Shown here: positions 1 through 26,677 of the stretch, piece after piece
Numbering within the stretch: the stretch's first letter is position 1
Layout: the number at the start of each line of letters is the position of its first letter
Source: a virus
Taxonomy: Duplodnaviria; Heunggongvirae; Uroviricota; Caudoviricetes
Virus record (IMG/VR): IMGVR_UViG_2700989521_000016
DNA length: 29,192 nt
Strand: one strand, 5' to 3'
The notes under the pieces: model-generated
What the model was told of the DNA's origin: nothing
The model's database searches: none
Seen by the model: only the letters and a program-made list of their open reading frames with translations
Position numbers and translations under genes: made by a program

Positions 1-1251
1 GTGCTTACCGATACAAAATTAAAAAACCTCAAGCCGCAGGACAAACTATACAAAGTCTCCGATCGTGACGGGCTGTATGTAGCTGTACTTACGTCAGGTA
101 CGGTCTCGTTTCGCTATGACTACCGTATCAACGGTCGCCGCGAAACACTGGTAATCGGGCAGTATGGGCGTGACGGTATCAGCCTGGCAGAAGCTCGAGA
201 AGAACTGATTGCTGCAAAGAAGCTGCTTAAAGCAGGCCAGTCACCGGCTACGGCTAAACGTGACGGTATCAAAAAGATTCGTGGTGCCGATACGTTTGCG
301 GTACATACCGACAGTTATATGAAACACGTCATCCTGGCTGAAAGTACCCGCGCAATGAAGCAGGCAGTGATAGACCGTGACATACTTCCGGTTCTTGGCA
401 ACAAAATGATGGCTGAAATTACCACATCGATGGTTCGTGATTTGTGTGACCGGATTGTCGAACGCGGTGGCCGGGCAACAGCAGTACAGGCCAGGGAGAT
501 CATCAGCAGCGTATACCGTCACGCCAATGACCGTGGTCATGGTTTGTTTAATCCTGCGGCTGACATTAAACCTTCGTCTATCGCCATATTTAAACCACGA
601 GAGCGAACACTGACACCAGAAGAAATTGGCCTGTTCTTCCGTACGCTGGATGCCATTGGTGCTATGGGCACTATGAAAATGGCTTTAAAGCTGGTGCTTA
701 TCACTATGGTTCGTAAAGGCGAGTTCACCAATGCAACGTGGGATGAAATAGATTTTAAAAAATGGACATGGACAATTCCTTCAGACCGCATGAAGGGAAG
801 CCGGGCGCACGTTATTTACCTGCCTAAACAGGCACAGGATATATTGGTAGGGTTGCAGATGTGCGCTGGTGGAAGTGAATATCTGGTTCCTGGTCGTTAC
901 AACTTCCGGAAGCCATTATCTAATGCCGCGCTGAACTCTCTGATCGACAGAACGGTGAAAATAATAAATGAAGATGGTGAGCATATTCAGGACTTCACTG
1001 TACATGATATGCGCCGTACAGCCAGTACGTTGTTGCATGAGGCTGGTTATCCTTCAGACTGGATTGAAAAGGCTCTGGCACATGAGCAGAAAGGTGTGCG
1101 CGCCGTATATAACAAAGCGGAATATGCCAGACAGCGCGCCTACATGTTGCAGCAGTGGGCCGATATGATTGATTCCTGGATTAACGGGGAGCATACGGAT
1201 CTGATTCCGTTCTCCCCGTCGAAGTTTGAGAAGTGGATGGCGGGGGAATAA
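1..1251 (+). CDS. int: Tyrosine site-specific integrase, P4-type; begins at window edge with GTG, so the 5' end may be truncated by a codon or two
   Basis: 416-aa ORF; N-terminus (LTDTKLKNLKP...DGLYVAV...FRYDYRINGRRETLVIGQYG...SLAEAR) matches the characteristic P4-family integrase N-terminal domain from memory; C-terminal region has the R...H..R...Y-type catalytic-domain pattern (HDMRRTAST...VYNKAEY). Confidence 0.9.
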   Translation: MLTDTKLKNLKPQDKLYKVSDRDGLYVAVLTSGTVSFRYDYRINGRRETLVIGQYGRDGISLAEAREELIAAKKLLKAGQSPATAKRDGIKKIRGADTFAVHTDSYMKHVILAESTRAMKQAVIDRDILPVLGNKMMAEITTSMVRDLCDRIVERGGRATAVQAREIISSVYRHANDRGHGLFNPAADIKPSSIAIFKPRERTLTPEEIGLFFRTLDAIGAMGTMKMALKLVLITMVRKGEFTNATWDEIDFKKWTWTIPSDRMKGSRAHVIYLPKQAQDILVGLQMCAGGSEYLVPGRYNFRKPLSNAALNSLIDRTVKIINEDGEHIQDFTVHDMRRTASTLLHEAGYPSDWIEKALAHEQKGVRAVYNKAEYARQRAYMLQQWADMIDSWINGEHTDLIPFSPSKFEKWMAGE

Positions 1252-2795: not shown

Positions 2796-3737
2796 TTACA
2801 TAGATGTTTCGTTTAATTCTTCCCGACGAACGCTGTAAACGTCGGTGGCTTTTGCCAGCAGTTCGTCATCATCTGAAAGTTTTTGTGCAATGTATTTGTA
2901 AGCCTTATCCAGTTCGGAGACAGTGCTGTAATTCATCGCTGCGCTGGTAAAGGCCATTAGCATTTCTTCTGGAGCACGGCTATCCGCTTTACGCGTTTGC
3001 TCATCAGGCTTTTTCACTTGTTTAGCGTTGATCAGACTGTTCATTCCCGCAGCAGTGATCGTTTGCGGAGTAATGTCTCGCTCAACGCGCGGTGCCGTTT
3101 CCTGTAATTCGTCTGGTGTGTAGACGCCCATGATTACGTCAGGACAGTGCAAGCGAGACCAGCGTTTTGTCGCAAGGTATGCGAGTTGTTGTTTCGGATC
3201 ACTGGCCCAAAGTGTGGAGTTTCTTACCTGTGCTTGAGACAGCATTAACTCAAGCACTCGAGGTTGATCCTCGCCCTTCATGGTTGCCCATACGCGAACA
3301 CCGCAACCTTCTTCGTCTTTTAGAGTCCAGCCTGGTGCGATATACGGATTGCCGTTTTTGGATGTTTTCTCAACAAACTTACCGATCACGCGTTCCCACG
3401 GCCCGAACCACTCGTAGTTGATGCGATCTTTTGTTGGCGACATTGTTGAGATAACTGCGTTTACTAATTGGGCTTCATAACCTAGCGTGCCGTTCACAAC
3501 ATGGGTTTTCTGAGCCACGGCAAACGGGTTCATTCCCCACTGCGCAGCCTGCATTGCCACGGCCATGCAATCAGCTGGTTTCCCGGCGAGGTGCGCCGGT
3601 ACCGTTACGCGGCTTTGCGCCATTACCTCGGCGAATTTCATCAGTTGGTTCAAGCCGTCTGGGCTGAAAATAGTTGCAGCAGTTCCAGCGATTGCTGTGT
3701 CTACTGGTGCGTTGATGTTTGCGATGTCGTTGCTCAT
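2796..3737 (-). CDS. bet: Bet/RecT-family single-strand annealing recombinase
   Basis: 313 aa from ATG at 3735-3737, which overlaps the exonuclease stop (ATGA); shares the ERDITP motif and surrounding pattern with lambda Bet from memory; the ORF track's alternative start at 3764 would overlap the upstream gene by 30 bp. Confidence 0.85.
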   Translation of the reverse strand: MSNDIANINAPVDTAIAGTAATIFSPDGLNQLMKFAEVMAQSRVTVPAHLAGKPADCMAVAMQAAQWGMNPFAVAQKTHVVNGTLGYEAQLVNAVISTMSPTKDRINYEWFGPWERVIGKFVEKTSKNGNPYIAPGWTLKDEEGCGVRVWATMKGEDQPRVLELMLSQAQVRNSTLWASDPKQQLAYLATKRWSRLHCPDVIMGVYTPDELQETAPRVERDITPQTITAAGMNSLINAKQVKKPDEQTRKADSRAPEEMLMAFTSAAMNYSTVSELDKAYKYIAQKLSDDDELLAKATDVYSVRREELNETSM

Positions 3738-5025: not shown

Positions 5026-5102
5026 TTACCGTTGAGGTAATAATTATGCGTATTTGGTTTGATGTCAATAGATATGAGTTGAAAAAATTACCTGCAAGGT
5101 AA
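5026..5102. promoter_or_regulatory. PL-like leftward early promoter region with two perfect TTACC-N5-GGTAA operator palindromes (5026-5040, 5088-5102)
   Basis: Perfect palindromes TTACCGTTGAGGTAA and TTACCTGCAAGGTAA read directly; minus-strand TTGACA (5063-5068) and CATAAT/TAATTA-like -10 candidates lie between and adjacent to them; exact -35/-10 spacing not resolved. Confidence 0.6.
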
Positions 5103-5159: not shown

Positions 5160-5744
5160 TTATTGTTTGTTTTTTTCGTTCTGGTTGATGACAAATTCAA
5201 TGTAACTTTCGATCTTTGCTTTCTCGGTTTCAGGTAACAATGCGTAGCGCGAGCGGTCATAGTTGATAGTTGCAGGGTCGTGCGGGTGAATCAGTAGTTC
5301 ATATCCGTGACGCCCGAATGCAGATGCAACATTCTCCAGAGTGGAAATGGAAACGCTGACCTCATTGTTTAACAGGCGGCTGATTGTCACCTGGGCGACG
5401 CCGGATGCGCGGTGAAGTTTTCCCTGAGTTGAAAGGTCGCGGCTTTCACTCATCCAGCGTTCCAGGTTGTGAGCCGCCAGCTGACCAATGTCGCTTGGTC
5501 CAACAGGCTGAAAACCCTCCTGAGAAAGCGAGCGATCGATATCAAGCCAGTTACGTGGTTTATTGGCGGCAGCTTCAATTTTTCGCGCAACCTGGTCGCC
5601 GATAACCTTCTTGCCAAGAGCCCAGCGGTTTACCAGATTTGCCTGAGTTCCAAGTTTTTCTGCCATCCGCGTCTGAACACCATTGAATTCACGGTCGATC
5701 AAGTCGTTGAGATTTTGCCTGCGGACGTCCTGGATACTTTTCAT
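5160..5744 (-). CDS. Prophage repressor candidate with two tandem XRE-type helix-turn-helix domains and no recognisable S24 peptidase domain
   Basis: 194 aa; two HTH-like segments (MAEKLGTQANLVNRWALGKK...; ASGVAQVTISRLLNNEVSVSISTLENVASAFG); divergent from Cro-like gene with operator palindromes between them. Confidence 0.75.
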   Translation of the reverse strand: MKSIQDVRRQNLNDLIDREFNGVQTRMAEKLGTQANLVNRWALGKKVIGDQVARKIEAAANKPRNWLDIDRSLSQEGFQPVGPSDIGQLAAHNLERWMSESRDLSTQGKLHRASGVAQVTISRLLNNEVSVSISTLENVASAFGRHGYELLIHPHDPATINYDRSRYALLPETEKAKIESYIEFVINQNEKNKQ

Positions 5745-5799: not shown

Positions 5800-5862
5800 T
5801 TACCCAACAGGTAAATGCACCCCATAGGTAACTATCCTTGATTTTTGTTACCTTATGGGTGA
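5800..5862. promoter_or_regulatory. Tripartite operator region between repressor and Cro-like genes (sites 5800-5814 perfect, 5817-5831 imperfect, 5848-5862 9/10)
   Basis: TTACCCAACAGGTAA, GCACCCCATAGGTAA, TTACCTTATGGGTGA read directly; TTGATT -35-like hexamer at 5837-5842 upstream of the Cro-like gene. Confidence 0.65.
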
Positions 5863-5898: not shown

Positions 5899-6129
5899 AT
5901 GAGCGATAACGGACATTTCGATTTCAAAAAGCACTGGCTTGCACTTACTCCGGATGAGCGTGAAGCCTTCGCACAGGAAGCCGGAACGACGAGTCACTAT
6001 ATCCAGACTCACTTAACAGGTAAGCGCAAAATGACAGGTAAAGTATTGATGAATGGGCTTTTTAAAGCCTGTAAAACAAGACAATGGCTGCGCTCAAAAG
6101 CAGAACTGGCATACTTCTTCTACTCATGA
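5899..6129 (+). CDS. Cro-like / YdaS-like small DNA-binding regulator
   Basis: 76 aa; position divergent from repressor; pattern resembles Cro/CI-type HTH (EAFAQEAGTTSHYIQTHLTGKRKM); weak SD. Confidence 0.65.
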   Translation: MSDNGHFDFKKHWLALTPDEREAFAQEAGTTSHYIQTHLTGKRKMTGKVLMNGLFKACKTRQWLRSKAELAYFFYS

Positions 6130-6495: not shown

Positions 6496-7311
6496 ATGAG
6501 CAGACATGCAACAGATTGGGCCTGGGAGACAGATCCAGGTAGCTCATCATTAAAGCTCATACTGCTCTCGATGGCTGACAGAGCCGATGAATATAACCTC
6601 TGCTACCCCAGCATAGAACGCCTCGTTAAAGACACTTGCCTGAATAAAAAAACCGTGCAGGCCGGGCTTATATCGCTCATGAAAATGGGGCTTATTTCAG
6701 ATACCGGAGAGAGAAAGGGAGCGACGAAAAGAGTGCGGGTTTTCTCTCTTAATATAACCAAAAACGGGAACATTAAAGGCAACCGGGAAGGGGGGAATGA
6801 ACCCGAAAACGGTAATGTTCCCGAAAACGGTAATATAACCAAAAACGGGATGTTGAATGATCCCAAAAACGGGATGTTGAATGATCCCAAAAACGGGATC
6901 CAGAACCAGTCATATAACCAGTCATTTAACCAAGAGAGGGAGAGCAGGACAAAAAACGGGAATTCTGTGCCTCATGACCCCGGCGCAAACAACGCCGTGA
7001 TGAATAACTTTGTTCCTCCTGGTGGGCCAGGGCAATTAGGCAAATTTGTCATGCATGAACAATGGCAGCCATCAGATGACTTTCTTCGGAAAAGCTCATT
7101 GCAGGGGATCTACCTGGACAGTCTGCCAACGGCACAGGAACTTGCAGAGTTCAGAATTTACTGGATGGCTGAGGGTAAGGCATACCATCAGGCACAGTGG
7201 GAGCAGAAGCTGGCAAGGCGGCTGCAGATTAGCAGACAGAAGCAATCAACATTACCTGATAACAACGTTCCGCACTGGAACAGCCCTGAAGCATGGGAGG
7301 ATTTCTTGTGA
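6496..7311 (+). CDS. Replication initiator protein (lambda O-like organisation: N-terminal HTH domain, iteron-encoded linker, C-terminal DnaT-like domain)
   Basis: 271 aa; sits directly upstream of and overlaps the P-like gene; internal iteron array encodes an NG-rich linker; GGAG SD upstream. Confidence 0.75.
   Translation: MSRHATDWAWETDPGSSSLKLILLSMADRADEYNLCYPSIERLVKDTCLNKKTVQAGLISLMKMGLISDTGERKGATKRVRVFSLNITKNGNIKGNREGGNEPENGNVPENGNITKNGMLNDPKNGMLNDPKNGIQNQSYNQSFNQERESRTKNGNSVPHDPGANNAVMNNFVPPGGPGQLGKFVMHEQWQPSDDFLRKSSLQGIYLDSLPTAQELAEFRIYWMAEGKAYHQAQWEQKLARRLQISRQKQSTLPDNNVPHWNSPEAWEDFL
6757..6900. repeat. Iteron array (candidate origin of replication) embedded in the replication initiator gene
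   Basis: Direct repeats read from sequence: CCCGAAAACGGTAAT at 6802-6816 and 6820-6834 (18-bp period); CCAAAAACGGGATGTTGAATGAT at 6839-6862 and 6863-6886 plus a partial third copy; related CCAAAAACGGGAA at 6757-6769. Confidence 0.7.
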
Positions 7312-8130: not shown

Positions 8131-8207
8131 TTACCTTCTGGGTAATGAGATATTCTAAAATCTATTGATTTCGTGTCTTATGTGGTTTTTAATTACCTCA
8201 GGGGTAA
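8131..8207. promoter_or_regulatory. Promoter region of the nin-like operon with two perfect TTACC-N5-GGTAA palindromes (8131-8145, 8193-8207)
   Basis: TTACCTTCTGGGTAA and TTACCTCAGGGGTAA read directly; TTGATT (8165-8170) then 17 bp then TTTAAT (8188-8193) looks like a sigma70 promoter; second palindrome overlaps the -10/RBS of the gene starting at 8211. Confidence 0.6.
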
Positions 8208-8616: not shown

Positions 8617-9120
8617 ATGGAAAGTAATATCAAAGGGTTAGTTTCCGCCGGGCATGAGATGGCTTCGGAACTGAAAGCAGAATGTGGGGCCGTTGATATG
8701 CGTAGTGTGGCAAAGCTGATCAGCAATTTGGCAACGCAATTGGAAGTGCAACTGGTGCGTGCTAATGCGCTGGCCGAAGACCACCAGAGAGCGATTGAGT
8801 CAATTAAGCAGGCTGATGCAGCTGTTAAGTTGGCACACGAGAAGTTTTCGGCGCTGGCAGCGGAGAATGCAAAGCTGAAGAAGTTCTGCAAAGACGCTGC
8901 ATTCGATGCCGATTACGAAGCAGAGCTAGGTATGGAGAGAGGTGGATTCAGTGATGCACTTAACGAAATAAAAACCCCAGCCACCGACGCCTTCCTGGCT
9001 GAAGTGCGGGCTCAGGGTGTGGAGATGCTCTACGCAAGCAGAGCGGCTCAGTGGGCTGATGAATTGTTAGCTGAGCTTAATGAATTCGCCACTCAGCTTC
9101 GCGAAGGAGGTGCAGCATGA
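8617..9120 (+). CDS. Hypothetical protein (167 aa), Ala/Glu-rich, probably coiled-coil
   Basis: ORF with GAGGGT SD; no family recognised. Confidence 0.6.
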   Translation: MESNIKGLVSAGHEMASELKAECGAVDMRSVAKLISNLATQLEVQLVRANALAEDHQRAIESIKQADAAVKLAHEKFSALAAENAKLKKFCKDAAFDADYEAELGMERGGFSDALNEIKTPATDAFLAEVRAQGVEMLYASRAAQWADELLAELNEFATQLREGGAA

Positions 9121-9350
9121 GCAATCAGATTAAGCCTGCCAGAAGAATTGATGCAGATGGTAATGCCAGAGACGTCGACAACGCTTACGAGGAGGGAATC
9201 TACGCCGCCGTAATAGGCCTCGAGGTAACTGACAATCCGTATTCAACAGATGATCCACTCAACCGTAAGCTTTGGCTAAAGGCTTTCGCTGGGGTCAAGA
9301 GTGGAAAGATCAGAAGCGCCGCCCAGTTACGCAAAGGAGGCAACCAGTGA
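9117..9350 (+). CDS. Hypothetical protein (77 aa)
   Basis: ATG overlaps previous stop (ATGA); GGAGG SD upstream. Confidence 0.55.
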   Translation: MSNQIKPARRIDADGNARDVDNAYEEGIYAAVIGLEVTDNPYSTDDPLNRKLWLKAFAGVKSGKIRSAAQLRKGGNQ

Positions 9351-10120
9351 GCAAGATTGATTATCAGGCACTGCGTGAAGCGGCAGAAAAAGCAACGTGT
9401 GGTGAGTGGTCGCTCGAATATGGAGAGGGCCGATTTGATGGTGATGATGCGCTAATTAATCGCGAGGCTGCTGGATATATTCCCATTTGCAGAATTGAAG
9501 GAGCGCATCCTGAAAGCGGTTTCGATGAAGATTTCCAAATGGAACAGCAGGCCAATGCTGAATTCATCGCTGCAGCCAATCCGGCTACCGTGCTGGCACT
9601 GCTGGATGAACGGGAAAGAAACCAGCAATACATCAAACGCCGCGACCAGGAGAACGAGGATATTGCGCTAACGGTAGGGAAGCTGAGAGTTGAGCTGGAA
9701 GCCGCAGAGAATAACCTCATTGATAGTGAATGCCATGTTGCTGAACTGGAAGAAGCGCTACGCAATAAGCAGGCGTTACTTGAAGCATCAGAGAAGCGCA
9801 ACGCAAAATTACAAAGCGAGAATGCATACATCCGCAACCGGTACAAAGAACTGGACCTATTAATCGGGAAAAACATTCTGGTCATGCAGGCTGCCATTAT
9901 CGAATGGCAATCGACTGGCGACGCTAAAAGCGGACTAGCATGGATTTATAACACACTGTTTGGCCCAGGCGAATTGCCGGACGAATCTGAGAAAAATGCT
10001 CAGGCCTACTTTAATCGCAAATATGCACCGATTGACGAAAAGCTTATGGCGCTTCACAAGTGGTTTTGGGAACAAAGTGAAGCCGAGCGCGCCGCTGGCA
10101 TTCGCATCAAAGGAGAGTGA
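9347..10120 (+). CDS. Ead/Ea22-like protein (tentative), coiled-coil central region
   Basis: GTG at 9347 overlaps the previous stop (GTGA) with AAGGAGG SD 6 nt upstream; N-terminal IDYQALREAAEKATCGEW motif recalls the ead/Ea22-like family from memory; the ORF track's upstream extension from 9272 overlaps the preceding gene and was not used. Confidence 0.6.
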   Translation: MSKIDYQALREAAEKATCGEWSLEYGEGRFDGDDALINREAAGYIPICRIEGAHPESGFDEDFQMEQQANAEFIAAANPATVLALLDERERNQQYIKRRDQENEDIALTVGKLRVELEAAENNLIDSECHVAELEEALRNKQALLEASEKRNAKLQSENAYIRNRYKELDLLIGKNILVMQAAIIEWQSTGDAKSGLAWIYNTLFGPGELPDESEKNAQAYFNRKYAPIDEKLMALHKWFWEQSEAERAAGIRIKGE

Positions 10121-11017: not shown

Positions 11018-11385
11018 TGGACTATTCACAGTTAAGTGATTTTGAAATTAACAGAATGGTAGGAGACATAATTTTTAAAGGCCTTTGGGCATGTAAACCG
11101 GAAACATCAGGGAATAACACCAACAAATGGTATTACGGAAATGCTGATACAACTTTTGAGCCATTAAACCCTTTACCTGACTACTGCAATGATCCGAGCG
11201 CCTCATGGCCTGTAATCGCAAAACATCAGATCAGCATATGTGCATACGAAAGAAATAATCCTGGAATGAAGAATGAATATTGGTGGGAGGCGGATAGATT
11301 TTGTGAATTTATTACCATAGACAACAACCCACTCCGCGCCGCCATGATTGTATTTCTCATGATGCAGGAAAATCAGAATGGCTAA
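11017..11385 (+). CDS. Hypothetical protein (122 aa), possibly NinX/DUF2591-like
   Basis: ATG at 11017 overlaps previous stop (TAATG); GGAGG SD; N-terminus MDYSQLSDFEINRMVG; family assignment from memory only. Confidence 0.55.
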   Translation: MDYSQLSDFEINRMVGDIIFKGLWACKPETSGNNTNKWYYGNADTTFEPLNPLPDYCNDPSASWPVIAKHQISICAYERNNPGMKNEYWWEADRFCEFITIDNNPLRAAMIVFLMMQENQNG

Positions 11386-11716
11386 ATCATCAGCAGAGCG
11401 CAAAGCCGCTCAGAGAGCCAGACAAGCTGCATCTGGTGTGCGTAAGCTGGAAATTGTGCTTGATGCTCAGGAAATTGAAATGCTGGAGCGTAACTGTGCC
11501 ACGCGTCGCCCCGGGCGTGCGCCTTACGAATTTGGTGAGTATATAGCGTTACTGATCCGCCAGGATGATGCACGCGTGCGCGGGCGTATAAAATCGATCA
11601 GCAGAAAACGTTGCGGTAAGTGCGGCGAGAGAGTTCCAGTTAATTCATGCCCGTGTAATGGTGACTCGCAATGCTGGGTGACTAAAGGCTGGCATGAAAC
11701 GAAATTAATAGTGTGA
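11378..11716 (+). CDS. Hypothetical protein (112 aa) with C-terminal Cys cluster, last gene before terminator and packaging genes
   Basis: Basic N-terminus, RCGKCGERVPVNSCPCNGDSQCW zinc-binding-like cluster; could be a regulator, but no family recognised. Confidence 0.55.
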   Translation: MAKSSAERKAAQRARQAASGVRKLEIVLDAQEIEMLERNCATRRPGRAPYEFGEYIALLIRQDDARVRGRIKSISRKRCGKCGERVPVNSCPCNGDSQCWVTKGWHETKLIV

Positions 11717-11724
11717 CATGTCAC
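11713..11724. repeat. Perfect 12-bp palindrome GTGACATGTCAC, copy 1
   Basis: Read directly; overlaps the stop codon of the gene ending at 11716; identical copy at 13978-13989. Confidence 0.8.
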
Positions 11725-11765
11725 GAGTAGATTATGCATGATGAATTTGATGGGTTTTGAATACT

Positions 11766-11791
11766 GCCGCCAACTATGGCGGCTTTATTTT
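11766..11791 (+). terminator. Rho-independent terminator separating early/middle genes from the packaging genes
   Basis: Stem GCCGCCA/TGGCGGC (11766-11783, loop ACTA) followed by TTTATTTT (11784-11791). Confidence 0.75.
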
Positions 11792-11802
11792 GCATGATAC
11801 TA

Positions 11803-11835
11803 TTACCACAACGGTAACTATTACCACGGTGGTTA
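11803..11835. promoter_or_regulatory. Two TTACC-N5-GGTAA-type palindromes directly upstream of the small terminase start (11803-11817 perfect, 11821-11835 9/10)
   Basis: TTACCACAACGGTAA and TTACCACGGTGGTTA read directly; second site abuts the terS ATG at 11835. Confidence 0.6.
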
Positions 11836-12431
11836 TGATGCCTGCTGAACCTAAAACCTATAAACGCAAATCAACGCAATTTAAGCCACTAACAGCAATG
11901 CAGGAGGCTTATTGCCAGTCATACATCAAAACGCCTGAAAACCAGACTCAGGCAGCGATTAACGCAGGATTCTCCCCAAATACAGCGGCAGTTAAAGCCA
12001 GTGTCATGATGCGCGATGAACGCATTCAAAAACGGATTGCCGAGTTGATGGAGGAGCGCAACAAACGAATGCGCATCAGTGCTGATTACGTTCTCATGCG
12101 CCTGGTGGAGATCGACCAGATGGACGTGATCGACATCCTCAACGACGATGGGAGCCTTAAACCAATCTGTGAGTGGCCGAAAATTTGGCGCACTACGCTT
12201 AGTGGCTTTGATCTGTCATCGACCATCATGAACATGAACGAGGATTCGATAGAGACAATCCTCAAAAAAATTAAATGGCCTGACAAGGTGAAGAACCTTG
12301 AGCTGATTGGTAAGCATGTTGATGTCAACGCGTTCAAAGAACGTCTGGATGTTAATGTGAATGTGACAATTGCTGATCGCATAGCAGCAGCCAGGAAGCG
12401 ACTCAAAGAACGTCAGGATGGTAATCACTGA
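11835..12431 (+). CDS. terS: Terminase small subunit
   Basis: ATG at 11835 (MMPAEPKTYKRKSTQFKPLTAMQEAYCQ...), downstream of terminator; position immediately upstream of the large terminase; the track's 11757 start lies inside the terminator and was not used. Confidence 0.7.
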   Translation: MMPAEPKTYKRKSTQFKPLTAMQEAYCQSYIKTPENQTQAAINAGFSPNTAAVKASVMMRDERIQKRIAELMEERNKRMRISADYVLMRLVEIDQMDVIDILNDDGSLKPICEWPKIWRTTLSGFDLSSTIMNMNEDSIETILKKIKWPDKVKNLELIGKHVDVNAFKERLDVNVNVTIADRIAAARKRLKERQDGNH

Positions 12432-12460
12432 CAGATACAGCGTTATCTCCTGAAGAGCAG

Positions 12461-13903
12461 TTGATCGAGGATATTGCAGGGTTCACTCACGATCCGCTTG
12501 GCTATGCCCTCTATGCGTTCCCGTGGGGGGAAGAGGGGACTGAATTAGCACATGCCACCGGTCCACGTCAGTGGCAGGCTGATGCGTTCCGAGAGATACG
12601 TGATCACCTGCAGAATCCAGAGACGCGCTATCAGCCGCTTATGCTGGCACGTGCTTCGGGTCACGGTATTGGTAAATCCGCATTCATCTCAATGCTGATC
12701 AACTGGGGCATGTCCACTTGCGAGGATTGTAAGGTCGTGGTGACCGCCAACACCGACAACCAGCTACGAACGAAGACTTGGCCGGAAATTATCAAGTGGT
12801 CGAACCTTGCTATCACGAAAGACTGGTTTACCTGTACCGCTACCGCGATGTACAGCAATGACCCTGGGCACGACAAGCGGTGGCGAGCTGACGCAATCCC
12901 CTGGTCTGAGCACAACACTGAGGCATTCGCCGGACTACACAACGAGCGCAAACGCATCATCGTGGTATTCGATGAAGCGTCGAACATTGCGGATCTGGTG
13001 TGGGAAGTTGCCGAGGGTGCGCTAACGGACGAAGACACTGAGATTATCTGGGTGGCGTTCGGAAACCCGACGCGTAACACCGGGCGTTTCCGTGAATGTT
13101 TCCGCAAGTACAAACACCGCTGGAAGTGTGCGCAGATTGACAGCCGGACGGTGGAAGGCACTAACAAACAGCAGTTGCAGAAATGGGTTGATGACTACGG
13201 GGAAGACAGCGACTTCGTTAAAATCCGTGTGCGCGGCATATTCCCGGATGCATCTGAATTGCAGTTTATCCCTACTGGCCTTACTGACGAGGCAATGAAA
13301 CGGGTGGTAACCGCTGCGCAGGTTGCACATGCTCCGGTGATAATCGGCGTTGACCCGGCATACTCCGGCGTTGATGACGCTGTGATATACCTGCGGCAGG
13401 GGCTGCACAGTAAGGTGCTGTGGACTGGCAACAAGACCACTGACGATCTGATTATGGCGAAGCGTATCGCTGACTTTGAAGACCAGTACCAGGCTGACGC
13501 AGTGTTCATCGACTTCGGTTACGGAACTGGTCTGAAGTCAATCGGTGACGGCTGGGGTCGTACATGGCAACTTGTTCCGTTCGGTGGCGCGTCTACTGAC
13601 CCGCAGATGCTCAACAAGCGTGGGGAGATGTTCATCTCATGCAAGACATGGCTGAGGCTGGGTGGCATGCTTGATGACCAGGAAACAGCGGACGACCTGT
13701 CGGCGGCTGAGTACAAAGTTCGAGTGGACGGTAAAATCGTTATCGAACCGAAGGAAGATATCAAGGAGCGGCTTGGGCGTTCGCCGGGTAAAGGCGATGC
13801 GCTACTGCTGACGTTTGCGTTCCCTGTGTCGAAGCGTCTGCGAATTCCCGGGCAGCAGAACCAGCAAGGCAAGGCCATCACAGATTACGATCCCTATGCT
13901 TAA
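12461..13903 (+). CDS. terL: Terminase large subunit (ATPase plus nuclease domains)
   Basis: 480 aa; Walker A-like ASGHGIGKS; VVFDEASN Walker B-like; TTG start at 12461 as in ORF track (in-frame stop at 12422-12424 limits upstream extension). Confidence 0.85.
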   Translation: MIEDIAGFTHDPLGYALYAFPWGEEGTELAHATGPRQWQADAFREIRDHLQNPETRYQPLMLARASGHGIGKSAFISMLINWGMSTCEDCKVVVTANTDNQLRTKTWPEIIKWSNLAITKDWFTCTATAMYSNDPGHDKRWRADAIPWSEHNTEAFAGLHNERKRIIVVFDEASNIADLVWEVAEGALTDEDTEIIWVAFGNPTRNTGRFRECFRKYKHRWKCAQIDSRTVEGTNKQQLQKWVDDYGEDSDFVKIRVRGIFPDASELQFIPTGLTDEAMKRVVTAAQVAHAPVIIGVDPAYSGVDDAVIYLRQGLHSKVLWTGNKTTDDLIMAKRIADFEDQYQADAVFIDFGYGTGLKSIGDGWGRTWQLVPFGGASTDPQMLNKRGEMFISCKTWLRLGGMLDDQETADDLSAAEYKVRVDGKIVIEPKEDIKERLGRSPGKGDALLLTFAFPVSKRLRIPGQQNQQGKAITDYDPYA

Positions 13904-13953: not shown

Positions 13954-13973
13954 AGCCAGCTCATCGGCTGGCT
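13954..13973. terminator. Bidirectional terminator-like hairpin between terL and the convergent moron gene
   Basis: Stem AGCCAGC/GCTGGCT with loop TCATCG; A-rich upstream (U tract on minus strand) and GTTTGTG downstream on plus strand. Confidence 0.55.
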
Positions 13974-13977
13974 GTTT

Positions 13978-13989
13978 GTGACATGTCAC
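13978..13989. repeat. Perfect 12-bp palindrome GTGACATGTCAC, copy 2
   Basis: Read directly; identical to 11713-11724, shared flanks extend the match to tGTGACATGTCACg. Confidence 0.8.
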
Positions 13990-13993
13990 GGTG

Positions 13994-14350
13994 TTATTGC
14001 TCGCTTAGCTTCTGCTTCAGCAAGTAACCTTCGAGCATCCAGATTTTGTTTACAGCATTCTGCCGGGCAATCTTCCGACCAATTTCTGCATCAAAGTTTT
14101 CCTGGCTTGCACAGGCACTCTCTCCGGTGACGGTGAAGCCATTCTTCAGCACCAGTACGCAGAAAGTCAGGAGGTCTGTAGAGTTATGCGCTGTCCATGA
14201 ATCGCCAACGCCCATATTGGCGGCACGAATGCCGTCATAAGCAGTAAAGAAATGCTCTTCAAGAATGATGCTTTCGATATATTGAGGCGTAACTCGCGGT
14301 GCCGTTTTGCCTTTCTCAACGATTTCTTTTTCGATTTGCTGGTCGTTCAT
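13994..14350 (-). CDS. Moron-like hypothetical protein (118 aa) on the opposite strand to the late genes; possibly Gp49/Sf6 gp66-like family (tentative)
   Basis: ATG at 14348-14350 with AAGGTGAG SD; flanked by terminator hairpins on both sides; motif NGFTVTGESACASQENFDAEIGRKIA recalls a conserved phage family from memory. Confidence 0.7.
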   Translation of the reverse strand: MNDQQIEKEIVEKGKTAPRVTPQYIESIILEEHFFTAYDGIRAANMGVGDSWTAHNSTDLLTFCVLVLKNGFTVTGESACASQENFDAEIGRKIARQNAVNKIWMLEGYLLKQKLSEQ

Positions 14351-14946: not shown

Positions 14947-14961
14947 TTACCTGAAAGGTAA
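14947..14961. promoter_or_regulatory. Perfect TTACC-N5-GGTAA palindrome at the head of the virion-gene operon
   Basis: TTACCTGAAAGGTAA read directly, right half-site runs into GGTAATAAT (possible -10); a second GGTAATAAT at 15017-15025. Confidence 0.6.
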
Positions 14962-15051
14962 TAATTCGTGCGTTAAATGTCAACCGACTACGATAAATAA
15001 ATCATATGTGGTTAAATTGGTAATAATTTAATTGCGTACGGAGTCATTGAT

Positions 15052-24244: not shown

Positions 24245-26677
24245 ATGCCAGTTGTACCAACAACATCGGGCCGTCAGGTTCAGAGCAGAGGGATTTCGAC
24301 GCAGGGATTCTCATCGTTTCAGACACCAAATGTCGGTGATGTACTTGGCGATGTTGCAGAGCAATATGCAGGTATTATTGCGCAGGCAAAACAGCGTGCG
24401 AATGTTGCTATGGCTCAGGATGCTTCTCTTAGCTTAAGCCAGATAAGCAGCGATCTGCTGAATAACCCTGAAACAGGTTTGCTTAACCTGAAAGGGAAAA
24501 ATGCTATTGGAAAAGGTCAGGAGTATACGCAGCAGCAGCGCATTCAGTTCACTACGCAGGCCGGGCGGCACGAGATAGGGCAAATTAATGCCTACGAAGA
24601 AGGTCAGTTTCAGGCGACGCTGCTGAATAATGGTAAAAATGCCGCAGCATTGTATGGCGACAATGCCGCATATGTATTGGCTAATAAGCAAACTTTCCAG
24701 CAAATTGAGGATTACGGCATTGCGCATGGCTGGAGCGACGAGCAAATCCAGGCCAAGAAAATCGAGTTTAAAGAGAAGGTTGCTGATGCCGCATTGTCCC
24801 AGTGGTCGGCAAACAATGCGACCGCATTCATCCAAAGTAATGGCGAGTTAAGTGATACTGCTGCTGGAGCTCGCCGTGCTGTAGCAGATAGTGACTCTTC
24901 CGAGCGTGCCCGTGGCATACGCAACAATAACCCAGGAAATCTCGAATACAGCAAAACTAATCCGTGGGTAGGCCAGACCGGTGATGATGGTCGATTTGCT
25001 AAATTCGAAACACCTGAACACGGGATTCGTGCATTAGGGCGAAACCTGATGTCGTATCAGAGGCAGGGTATTGATACCGTCAGCGAGATAATTAATCGCT
25101 GGGCACCGCCTACTGATAAAAATGATACTATGTCGTATATCAAAGCAGTGTGCGAACAACTTGGCGTTTCTGCTGATGATCCTCTCGATGCATCTAATCC
25201 TGATACCCTGAAGGCGCTTTGTGCAGCCATTATCCATCATGAGAACGGTAGCCAGCCATACAGTGATCAGCAGTTAACTGCTGGTGTCAGTGCAGCACTT
25301 GGTTTATCAACAATTCCAACCAACACCAAACGCTATACCGGTAATGCAGCATTCGATGCGGCATCTCCTGAGGCTCAGGCAAGTTTTATGCGACAGGCGG
25401 ATCAACTGCGTCGGCAGCAGCAGGCTGAATATAAAACGATAATTGACAGCAAGGTTCGCGATGCGACGGCTGCGTATATGCGTGGCGTTGAATTTCCTAA
25501 CCCACCTGGTGAGGATGATTTTATTGCAGCTTATGGCGTCAGAGAAGGAAACCTGCGATATACCGAGTTCAGAAATACGCAGATCGCCGGACAGTATATA
25601 GGCTCTTTCCGCAACATGCCGACAAGCAGCATTACCGCATATGTTGAGCAATTACGCCCGGATACTGGTGAGACAGGAGAGGGTTATGCGTCTCGCGCAG
25701 CTCTTTATGACAACGTTGTTTCGGCTGCAAATCAGGTGATAAAGCAGCGGCAGTCGGATCCTGTGCAGTTCTCTCTTGCCTCCGGACAGGCAAAGCCTAT
25801 CGACATGAGCAATAAGGATAACTTTGGACAGAGCGTTGCCTTGCGTGCCGCTCAGATCAGTGACCTTGCTAAGTCATATGGCACTCCACTGACGTTCTTT
25901 TCCAAAGACGAGGCCAATCAGATCGGTGTTTTCTTTCGTGATGCTCCAGTTTCCCAACAGGCAGCATATCTCGATACCATCAGGCAGAGCACTGGTGGTG
26001 GGCAGGTGTATATGTCAGCACTACAGCAGATCAGTGCCAACGCTCCATCTGCTGCCGTTGCCGGGATACTGATGGACAAGCCTGGTGGTATTTTGGCAGA
26101 AACAAACTGGTTTAATCCGGATGTTTCCGTGTCTCCTGAAACCGCTGCGCAGACAATTCTTGCTGGCGCGGCGGCTCGTAAAGGTACTGATGATGCGAAA
26201 GGTATTCCGATGCCTAAAGATGCTGATCTTCGCCTTGAGTTTTCTGACATGGTGAAGGATGCATTTGCTGGTGATGCTCAGGGGGCATCAATGGCATACG
26301 AGATCGCAAAGGACTATTACGCTGGTGTGATGGCGAAAAAAGGCGTGATATCAGGCGAAATTGACACTGATATCTGGAAACAGGCTGTTAACGTAGCTAC
26401 AGGTGGCGTGCATGACTATAACGGAATGGGGAATGTCCTTTTGCCGTGGGGAATGTCTGCAGAGCAATTCGATAAGCAGGTTAATCAGGCTTGGAATGAA
26501 CAAGTTGTCGGCACCGGGATAAAAACACCGCCTGGTCAGTATGGTTTGCAAAGTTACGGCGATAGTCAGTACCTGGTGAAACTTGGTACTGGTTATCTGC
26601 TGAAAGATGATGGTTCTCCCGTTGTTCTTAATCTGACACAGAAGCGTCAGAGATTCTCCGGAGATATTCCGCAATGA
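24245..26677 (+). CDS. Large internal virion/ejection protein (810 aa) with an embedded globular domain of possible enzymatic function
   Basis: Position and size match podovirus internal core proteins; conserved-looking segment RGIRNNNPGNLEYS...FAKFETPEHGIRALGRNL...IIHHENG at about nt 24905-25260. Confidence 0.7.
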   Translation: MPVVPTTSGRQVQSRGISTQGFSSFQTPNVGDVLGDVAEQYAGIIAQAKQRANVAMAQDASLSLSQISSDLLNNPETGLLNLKGKNAIGKGQEYTQQQRIQFTTQAGRHEIGQINAYEEGQFQATLLNNGKNAAALYGDNAAYVLANKQTFQQIEDYGIAHGWSDEQIQAKKIEFKEKVADAALSQWSANNATAFIQSNGELSDTAAGARRAVADSDSSERARGIRNNNPGNLEYSKTNPWVGQTGDDGRFAKFETPEHGIRALGRNLMSYQRQGIDTVSEIINRWAPPTDKNDTMSYIKAVCEQLGVSADDPLDASNPDTLKALCAAIIHHENGSQPYSDQQLTAGVSAALGLSTIPTNTKRYTGNAAFDAASPEAQASFMRQADQLRRQQQAEYKTIIDSKVRDATAAYMRGVEFPNPPGEDDFIAAYGVREGNLRYTEFRNTQIAGQYIGSFRNMPTSSITAYVEQLRPDTGETGEGYASRAALYDNVVSAANQVIKQRQSDPVQFSLASGQAKPIDMSNKDNFGQSVALRAAQISDLAKSYGTPLTFFSKDEANQIGVFFRDAPVSQQAAYLDTIRQSTGGGQVYMSALQQISANAPSAAVAGILMDKPGGILAETNWFNPDVSVSPETAAQTILAGAAARKGTDDAKGIPMPKDADLRLEFSDMVKDAFAGDAQGASMAYEIAKDYYAGVMAKKGVISGEIDTDIWKQAVNVATGGVHDYNGMGNVLLPWGMSAEQFDKQVNQAWNEQVVGTGIKTPPGQYGLQSYGDSQYLVKLGTGYLLKDDGSPVVLNLTQKRQRFSGDIPQ

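Follow-up and report, generated by a model that had tools for sequence, protein, structure and literature searches.

Gene order and layout upstream of terS

We analyzed the region upstream of the small terminase gene (terS) in a 29,192-nt stretch of viral DNA (hereafter, the window, meaning the whole of this stretch). The window is an epsilon15/phiV10-like (genus Uetakevirus) E. coli podovirus prophage, with TL-2011b as its closest phage. The stretch 11300-12500 was 99.8% identical to E. coli WP3-S18-ESBL-09 and had matches in 692 of the 5,426 complete E. coli genomes; in 502 of these, the match spanned at least 80% of the query. Related prophages were found across Enterobacteriaceae. The genes and sites considered here are listed in Table 1. 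In addition, the replication-initiator gene (6496-7311; HTH_36 and DnaT domains) contains, at 6757-6962, five copies of the iteron-like sequence (A/C)C(C/A)AAAAACGGGA(A/T), of which three are spaced at 24 bp. As in lambda, the origin thus probably lies inside the gene for the initiator.

Table 1. Genes, operators and other features of the window, in order of position
Feature	Position	Strand	Details
int	1-1251		followed by early-left recombination genes
OL pair	5026..5102 (5026-5040 and 5088-5102)		62 bp apart; around PL
PL promoter	5068..5040	minus	TTGACA-17-AATTAT; detected by promoter scan
rep, repressor gene (HTH)	5160-5744	minus	HTH_3 domain; product presumed to bind the operators
OR sites	5800..5862 (5800-5814, weak 5817-5831, 5848-5862)		between rep and the cro-like gene
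cro-like gene	5899-6129		phrog_35; adjoins OR; followed by replication genes, then nin-type genes
Operator pair	8131..8207 (8131-8145 and 8193-8207)		62 bp apart; before DUF1064 gene (ATG 8211); same regulon
112-aa "transcriptional regulator" gene	11378-11716		phrog_536
Rho-independent terminator	11766..11792	+	closes the early-right operon; terminator scan
Predicted extended −10 element	11795..11803	+	TGaTACTAT; TG at −15/−14, hexamer TACTAT; +1 inferred near 11810
Operator site 1	11802..11818		ATTACCACAACGGTAAC; core 11803-11817, TTACCACAACGGTAA; 0 mismatches, perfect half-sites
Operator site 2	11820..11836		core 11821-11835, TTACCACGGTGGTTA; 1 mismatch (GGTTA for GGTAA)
Shine-Dalgarno GGTGG	11828..11832	+	5 nt before ATG 11838; read from sequence
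terS, small terminase (Terminase_2)	11838-12431	+	Pfam PF03592, E = 1.6e-29; first gene of the unit predicted to be controlled
terL	to 13903		after terS; structural genes next
Single operator	14947..14961		upstream of the gp3/portal structural operon

The terminator that precedes terS consists of a stem (GCCGCC-AACTAT-GGCGGC, 11766-11783) followed by the TTTATTTTG T-tract, with an RNA fold of −17.2 kcal/mol (z = −3.5 versus shuffles). Only catgatacta lies between the T-tract and site 1, the first of two palindromes that match the 15–17-bp inverted repeat (A)TTACC-N5-GGTAA(T). The two sites are 18 bp from each other, separated by cta, and ATGATG stands at the end of site 2. A preliminary description of this DNA had reported operator-type palindromes of the TTACC-N5-GGTAA type squeezed into about 44 bp between a strong terminator and terS. 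The palindromes are there, and the gap is as short as described, measuring 45 bp from the end of the T-tract to ATG 11838; the perfect motif applies to site 1, the second site being imperfect in every sequence compared. That description also let site 2 end at the terS start codon, which is true of an extra first ATG (11835-11837) present only in the E. coli lineage and not of the conserved ATG at 11838.

ATG 11838 was aligned in all relatives and is the annotated start in TL-2011b and epsilon15. A longer terS can be read from TTG 11757 in the window, and long versions from an upstream TTG or ATG are annotated in phiV10 (41-715) and 66FD (8926-9597); such a gene would cross the terminator and both operators (window 11757-11837). 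In several lineages, in-frame stops occur 3-39 nt upstream of the terS ATG, the spacing between sites 1 and 2 varies among lineages (18, 19 or 20 bp), and the upstream stretch carries 1-2 bp indels in other lineages. The stretch upstream of ATG 11838 is therefore non-coding, and the long terS reading frame is an over-extension. The Shine-Dalgarno sequence is made by the spacer and the right half-site of site 2, and purine-rich counterparts were seen in all lineages. At the other end of terS, 68 related loci start terL with a GTG that shares bases with the stop codon of terS (GTGA). In this window only, the codon is CTG, and the next canonical start (TTG 12461) is polymorphic among relatives (TTG or TTA; region 12428-12463). 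The CTG could be a start-codon shift, a cause of reduced terL translation or a sequencing error.

The genes directly before terS are nin-type and not lysis genes, and a Pfam search found no Q- or N-type antiterminator domain in the early-right genes and ORFs tested. As terS has no lysis genes upstream and no such domain was found, the late region is not lambdoid. In the relatives TL-2011b and epsilon15, the late genes form several separate units rather than a single operon headed by lysis genes. Lambdoid late control (Q, PR', tR') was considered and rejected, with no Q-family domain found in the early-right ORFs tested and no lysis-led operon running into terS. phiES15, a lambdoid control, has a 60%-identical terS behind Q and lysis genes and no such sites before it. 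The earlier remark that the layout is atypical for lambdoid architecture thus misjudged its frame of reference: the late region is of another kind, and every unit of the epsilon15/phiV10 type carries such sites.

With a single exception, every locus with enough sequence before terS carried the 112-aa gene there. Its product has a basic N-terminus and a Cys-rich C-terminus (CGKCG...CPC...C) and returned no match in Pfam, NCBIfam or the PDB; it has 708 homologues, of which those named are "hypothetical" or "phage protein" and the best 120 are at least 77% identical. The AlphaFold2 model (pLDDT 61.7, pTM 0.38) was too poor for a fold search. A perfect 12-bp palindrome, GTGACATGTCAC, overlaps the stop codon of this gene (11713-11724), about 40 bp before the terminator, and recurs once in the window (13978-13989; expected number ~0.002), where the terL terminator hairpin (13954-13973) precedes it and the 3' end of a minus-strand gene (13994-14350) follows, so that the two copies bracket terS-terL. 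Three copies occur in epsilon15 (39612, 2142 and 19517), where the record leaves them unannotated, and three in SPC32H, all next to unit-end terminators; Tyrion has two in the linear record and a third, at the regulator stop, that spans the record ends, again next to terminators. GTGACATGTCAC may be the site of a second regulator or an insulator. Co-occurrence with the 112-aa gene is uninformative here, because the gene is present in all but one such locus.

The operator motif and its presumed repressor

Allowing one mismatch, TTACC-N5-GGTAA occurs nine times in the window against an expected 0.34 ± 0.57, and none of 100 shuffles reached nine. All nine sites fall within the intergenic 8.4% of the window, where they form five clusters (5026/5088; 5800/5848, with a weaker site at 5817; 8131/8193; 11803/11821; 14947). 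Arrays of the same motif (OL and OR) flank rep on both sides in the same element, and phages of this type have ~13-15 sites per genome. These counts, together with the conservation of the half-sites across genera, speak against chance palindromes. The palindromes could also pair in RNA (GGUAA/UUACC) and so form a leader hairpin controlling translation, and the preliminary description had named translation as a possible level of control by the immunity regulator; the leader fold (−9.3 kcal/mol, z = −0.44) was no better than shuffles and Rep is a DNA-binding HTH repressor, both of which speak against translational control. Chance and a leader hairpin together retain an almost negligible probability.

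We also considered that the repeats are recognition sites of the small terminase (pac or cosB-like R sites), which would lie beside terS as in lambda. Their position directly upstream of terS and an apparent 10-bp direct repeat (CTATTACCAC, twice) would suit such sites. However, the same palindrome occurs at seven other intergenic places, including both sides of rep, and the direct repeat was at chance level (25 of 100 shuffles) and, unlike the inverted half-sites, showed no conservation beyond the E. coli lineage. Since the motif occurs across the genome and the direct repeat is neither significant nor conserved, we rejected terminase recognition, which seems highly improbable.

The geometry of the operators differs between units. 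The spacing of the OL and 8131/8193 pairs is kept, at 62-63 bp, by the two corresponding pairs of epsilon15, Tyrion and BUCT711, and SPC32H has it at the second promoter; 62-bp pairs (approximately six helical turns) suggest looping by a tetrameric repressor. At the 8193 site, the −10 in the same register is TTTAAT, which lacks A-11, and the promoter scan reported none there; a promoter at that position was not relied on. At other late units, the gp3/portal operator lies at ~−70 from its candidate promoter (computed) and the lysis and tail-fibre operators at ~−60 from theirs (by eye). These positions are activator-like and not at +1; therefore, the action of Rep at those units may differ from that at terS, and its role across late genes is not uniform. 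The operator at 14947..14961 is orthologous to the epsilon15 "repressor" feature 2931..2947. At window 14947-15024 (gp3/portal) and at epsilon15 2932-3000 and 24704-24770 (including the lysis unit), a single Rep-type operator is followed, ~60-70 bp downstream, by a block of strong conservation, ...CATATGTGGTTAAAT / ...CATATGTGGTTTATT, which holds a candidate extended −10, TGgTTAAAT.

Salmonella phage SPC32H has a structurally characterized Rep/Ant lytic switch (PDB 5D4Z and 5D50), reportedly described by Kim and Ryu in 2013 and by Kim et al. in 2016. The window Rep, encoded 6 kb upstream of the terS sites, is a full-length homologue of SPC32H Rep (PDB 5D50, E = 4e-42). SPC32H Rep forms tetramers, carries its DNA-binding domain at the N-terminus and is inactivated by an antirepressor, and palindromic sites are bound by the Rep tetramer, dimer binding being weak (PMC9986798; bioRxiv 10.1101/2021.09.07.459249). 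The ant gene lies outside this window. In the close relative vB_EcoP_ZX5, repressor overexpression lowered the holin and endolysin transcripts by >99.9% (PMC9782041), which indirectly favours repression of the packaging genes by Rep.

Among 11 lineages, the N-terminal domain of Rep was 50-90% identical and the remainder 33-71%, and the DNA-binding domain contained an invariant NLV(N/S)RW helix. As far as the sequences go, this conserved domain fits the half-sites common to all these phages. The window Rep is 42% identical overall to that of epsilon15, and identity among lineages falls to 41% with the TTACC/GGTAA half-sites unchanged (window; epsilon15, L002; L003, L004, L085 and L089-L098). 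A test of repressor–operator covariation had no power because all lineages share one operator specificity, and the divergence of Rep over constant operators means that immunity specificity may reside in Rep–antirepressor pairing and not in operator recognition. In a prophage of K. pneumoniae ATCC 13883 (L091), the terS module is of the E. coli type and the accompanying Rep is 45% identical. Two close IMG/VR relatives (L039 and L059) keep the terS operators and have no Rep homologue or OL/OR within 10 kb upstream. Each could be a hybrid or a rearranged prophage, and such elements would naturally reveal how the predicted terS promoter behaves once its repressor is missing.

Conservation among lineages and existing annotation

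We gathered 80 viral contigs, 10 genome loci from other genera and 8 phage records, and aligned the regions upstream of terS with site 1 as the anchor. They represented 17 distinct lineages: E. coli and Salmonella phages, Enterobacter phage Tyrion, Klebsiella Kp4865-1, and prophages of Citrobacter, Pseudocitrobacter, Scandinavium, Superficieibacter, Kluyvera, Pseudescherichia, Buttiauxella and Ca. Erwinia dacicola. The columns TG.TA.T, ATTAC and GTAA were invariant in the 17 lineages, and the 5-bp spacer of site 1 varied (ACAAC, AAAAC, ATAAC, TAAAA, TTCAT, ATATT and others). Site 2 was recognizable, with one or two core mismatches, in 15 of 17 lineages, was never perfect, and was lost in Kp4865-1 and Kluyvera; its altered half was the left one in Salmonella-type lineages and the right one in E. 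coli-type lineages. The terminator was kept in 14 lineages and missing in three. The layout upstream of terS is common to epsilon15, Tyrion, SPC32H, 66FD and 10 prophages of other enterobacterial genera.

Part of this layout has been annotated before. The epsilon15 RefSeq record (NC_004775.2) is reportedly that of Kropinski et al. from 2007. It gives a "protein_bind, repressor" feature at 12..27, 20 nt before terS (47), a rho-independent terminator (39646..39672) where the permuted map ends, and further repressor sites before gp3, the tail fibre gene and the RuvC gene and at OL; its sequence has the two-site layout at 12 and 30, 18 bp apart. Epsilon15 resembles the window in the orthologous position, the TTACC-N5-GGTAA core, the preceding terminator and the 18 bp to an imperfect second site. 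Site 1 of the window is the orthologue of the site already predicted by the epsilon15 authors, and two repressor sites before the packaging genes are an ordinary, already annotated design of epsilon15-like phages. The record differs in annotating the first site only; what we add to it from the sequence is the presumed second site, the predicted extended −10 element and the predicted +1 register. SPC32H likewise has a homologous Rep and the same layout upstream of terS, but its site 2 is more degenerate (TTGCT...GGTAA). Aside from the primary epsilon15 and SPC32H operator papers, we found nothing further in the literature on operators in this genus. The feature opens no new question, as it extends an existing annotation.

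A candidate terS promoter and its proposed control

The predicted extended −10 directly 5' of site 1 has the pattern TGnTAnTAT, which was invariant in the 17 lineages with only the n positions varying. TG at −15/−14, T-12, A-11 and T-7, the five positions expected of such an element, are all present and all invariant. Furthermore, the −10-like element and site 1 were retained in the three lineages without a terminator, in which the upstream DNA is unrelated. The composite of extended −10 and site 1 is unique in the window, with no other operator so flanked. We infer that TGnTAnTAT serves as an extended −10 sigma-70 promoter. The 17-bp operator begins with the final two bases of this element, and because of this overlap the predicted start (~11810) coincides with the centre of site 1; the centre of site 2 would lie at ~+19. 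PL has the same register: its −10 ends at 5040, where the operator core begins, and the operator is again centred at +1. The promoter scan found no classical −35/−10 promoter between the terminator and the ATG, and the element escaped it because the hexamer (TACTAT) matches at only four of six positions and there is no −35. In an alternative register (TTGCAT-19-AACTAT), +1 would fall near 11827.

The palindromes are thus probably prophage repressor operators on a dedicated terS-terL promoter that is repressed by Rep. This promoter would be of the extended −10 type and would have no −35, since the terminator occupies that space, and transcription would begin at ~11810. One Rep tetramer, with its two pairs of DNA-binding domains, could bind the strong site 1 (−8 to +9) and, presumably in a cooperative manner, the weaker site 2 (+11 to +27); paired sites fit a tetramer of this build. 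The terS partner site would be adjacent, instead of 62 bp away as elsewhere, because the terminator fills the upstream space. Bound Rep would exclude RNA polymerase and also block any read-through, and the terminator would insulate the terS-terL unit from early-right transcription. Upon induction, the antirepressor would remove Rep and the terS promoter would fire, giving an mRNA with a ~28-nt leader whose Shine-Dalgarno sequence is encoded inside site 2. Site 2 abuts the ATG only because this leader is so short.

An alternative is that Rep binds at these sites as a roadblock and that no promoter exists here: terS would be expressed from early-right transcripts that run past the terminator, perhaps with the aid of an unrecognized antiterminator such as the 112-aa regulator, and the operators would halt leaked transcription in the lysogen in a stoperator-like manner. 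The terminator ends 3 bp before the putative promoter, leaving no room for a −35, and in the three lineages that have no terminator read-through must occur. The gene for the conserved small regulator (phrog_536) usually adjoins terS or is separated from it by one gene, and a weak promoter-like sequence (GTGACA-18-CATGAT, 11713-11742) followed by the terminator resembles lambda PR'-tR'. However, the invariance of TGnTAnTAT in 17 lineages, at this operator and no other, is hard to explain without a promoter, and the register is identical to that of PL. No Q- or N-family domain supports antitermination among the early-right genes and ORFs tested; moreover, ~40% of the E. coli loci have an extra gene between the regulator and terS, and the distance from the regulator's palindrome to terS varies (125, 311 and 469 bp). 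We therefore regard a pure roadblock as unlikely, and a promoter repressed by Rep as the better reading.

The terS sites might instead be used mainly by another protein of the same specificity during lytic growth, for example the cro-like protein, or might act positively. Cro and CI share operators in lambda-type switches, the cro-like repressor gene adjoins OR, and the operators of the gp3/portal, lysis and tail-fibre units stand at the activator-like distances given above. Nevertheless, the strong terS site has its centre at the predicted +1, where a bound protein would repress rather than activate. No observation ties the cro-like protein to the terS sites, and binding by Rep is compatible with this use in any case. 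Such a role appears decidedly improbable at terS, more so than the roadblock, although across the wider regulon the cro-like protein or activation may have a part. The preliminary description had proposed direct repression or activation of the packaging genes by the immunity regulator; with the motif being the same as that of the operators flanking rep, repression by Rep is the best explanation, and the part of the proposal that concerned activation is not borne out.

The likeness to known systems is partial. As at lambda OL/OR-PL/PR, a palindromic operator overlaps the core of a predicted promoter, adjacent sites permit cooperativity, and the repressor gene lies between OL and OR. Lambda CI acts at early promoters only, and the lambda late genes need Q antitermination from PR'; in the window, by contrast, this operator type sits directly on the predicted promoter of the packaging genes and at other late units. 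The operators of P1 C1 and the L5 sites are asymmetric, and L5 stoperators are located inside transcribed regions, where they affect elongation, whereas the window sites are symmetric, few and at promoters. Mycobacteriophage-type stoperators were rejected as a model, the window sites being symmetric and confined to intergenic promoter regions. What P1 C1 operators and the L5/L1 gp71 stoperators (PMC1934351) have in common with the window is one immunity repressor with many dispersed sites that directly silences several units.

More broadly, and only tentatively, these phages may have a flat, single-repressor regulon in which each unit (early-left, early-right, middle, packaging, head/tail, tail fibre and lysis) is a terminator-insulated cassette with one or more Rep operators and sometimes the GTGACATGTCAC palindrome. 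Geometry and affinity alone would then gate and time the late genes, with a +1/+19 pair at terS, +1/−62 pairs that loop at both PL and the middle promoter, and a lone operator at ~−60 to −70 in each of the other late units. If so, the late genes would need no dedicated activator or antiterminator. The findings also correct over-extended terS annotations and may be of use in engineering these phages, for the choice of insertion sites and the prediction of derepression. For the packaging genes themselves, a promoter of their own gated by the repressor would explain how the terminase is kept silent in the lysogen without a lambda-style late cascade.
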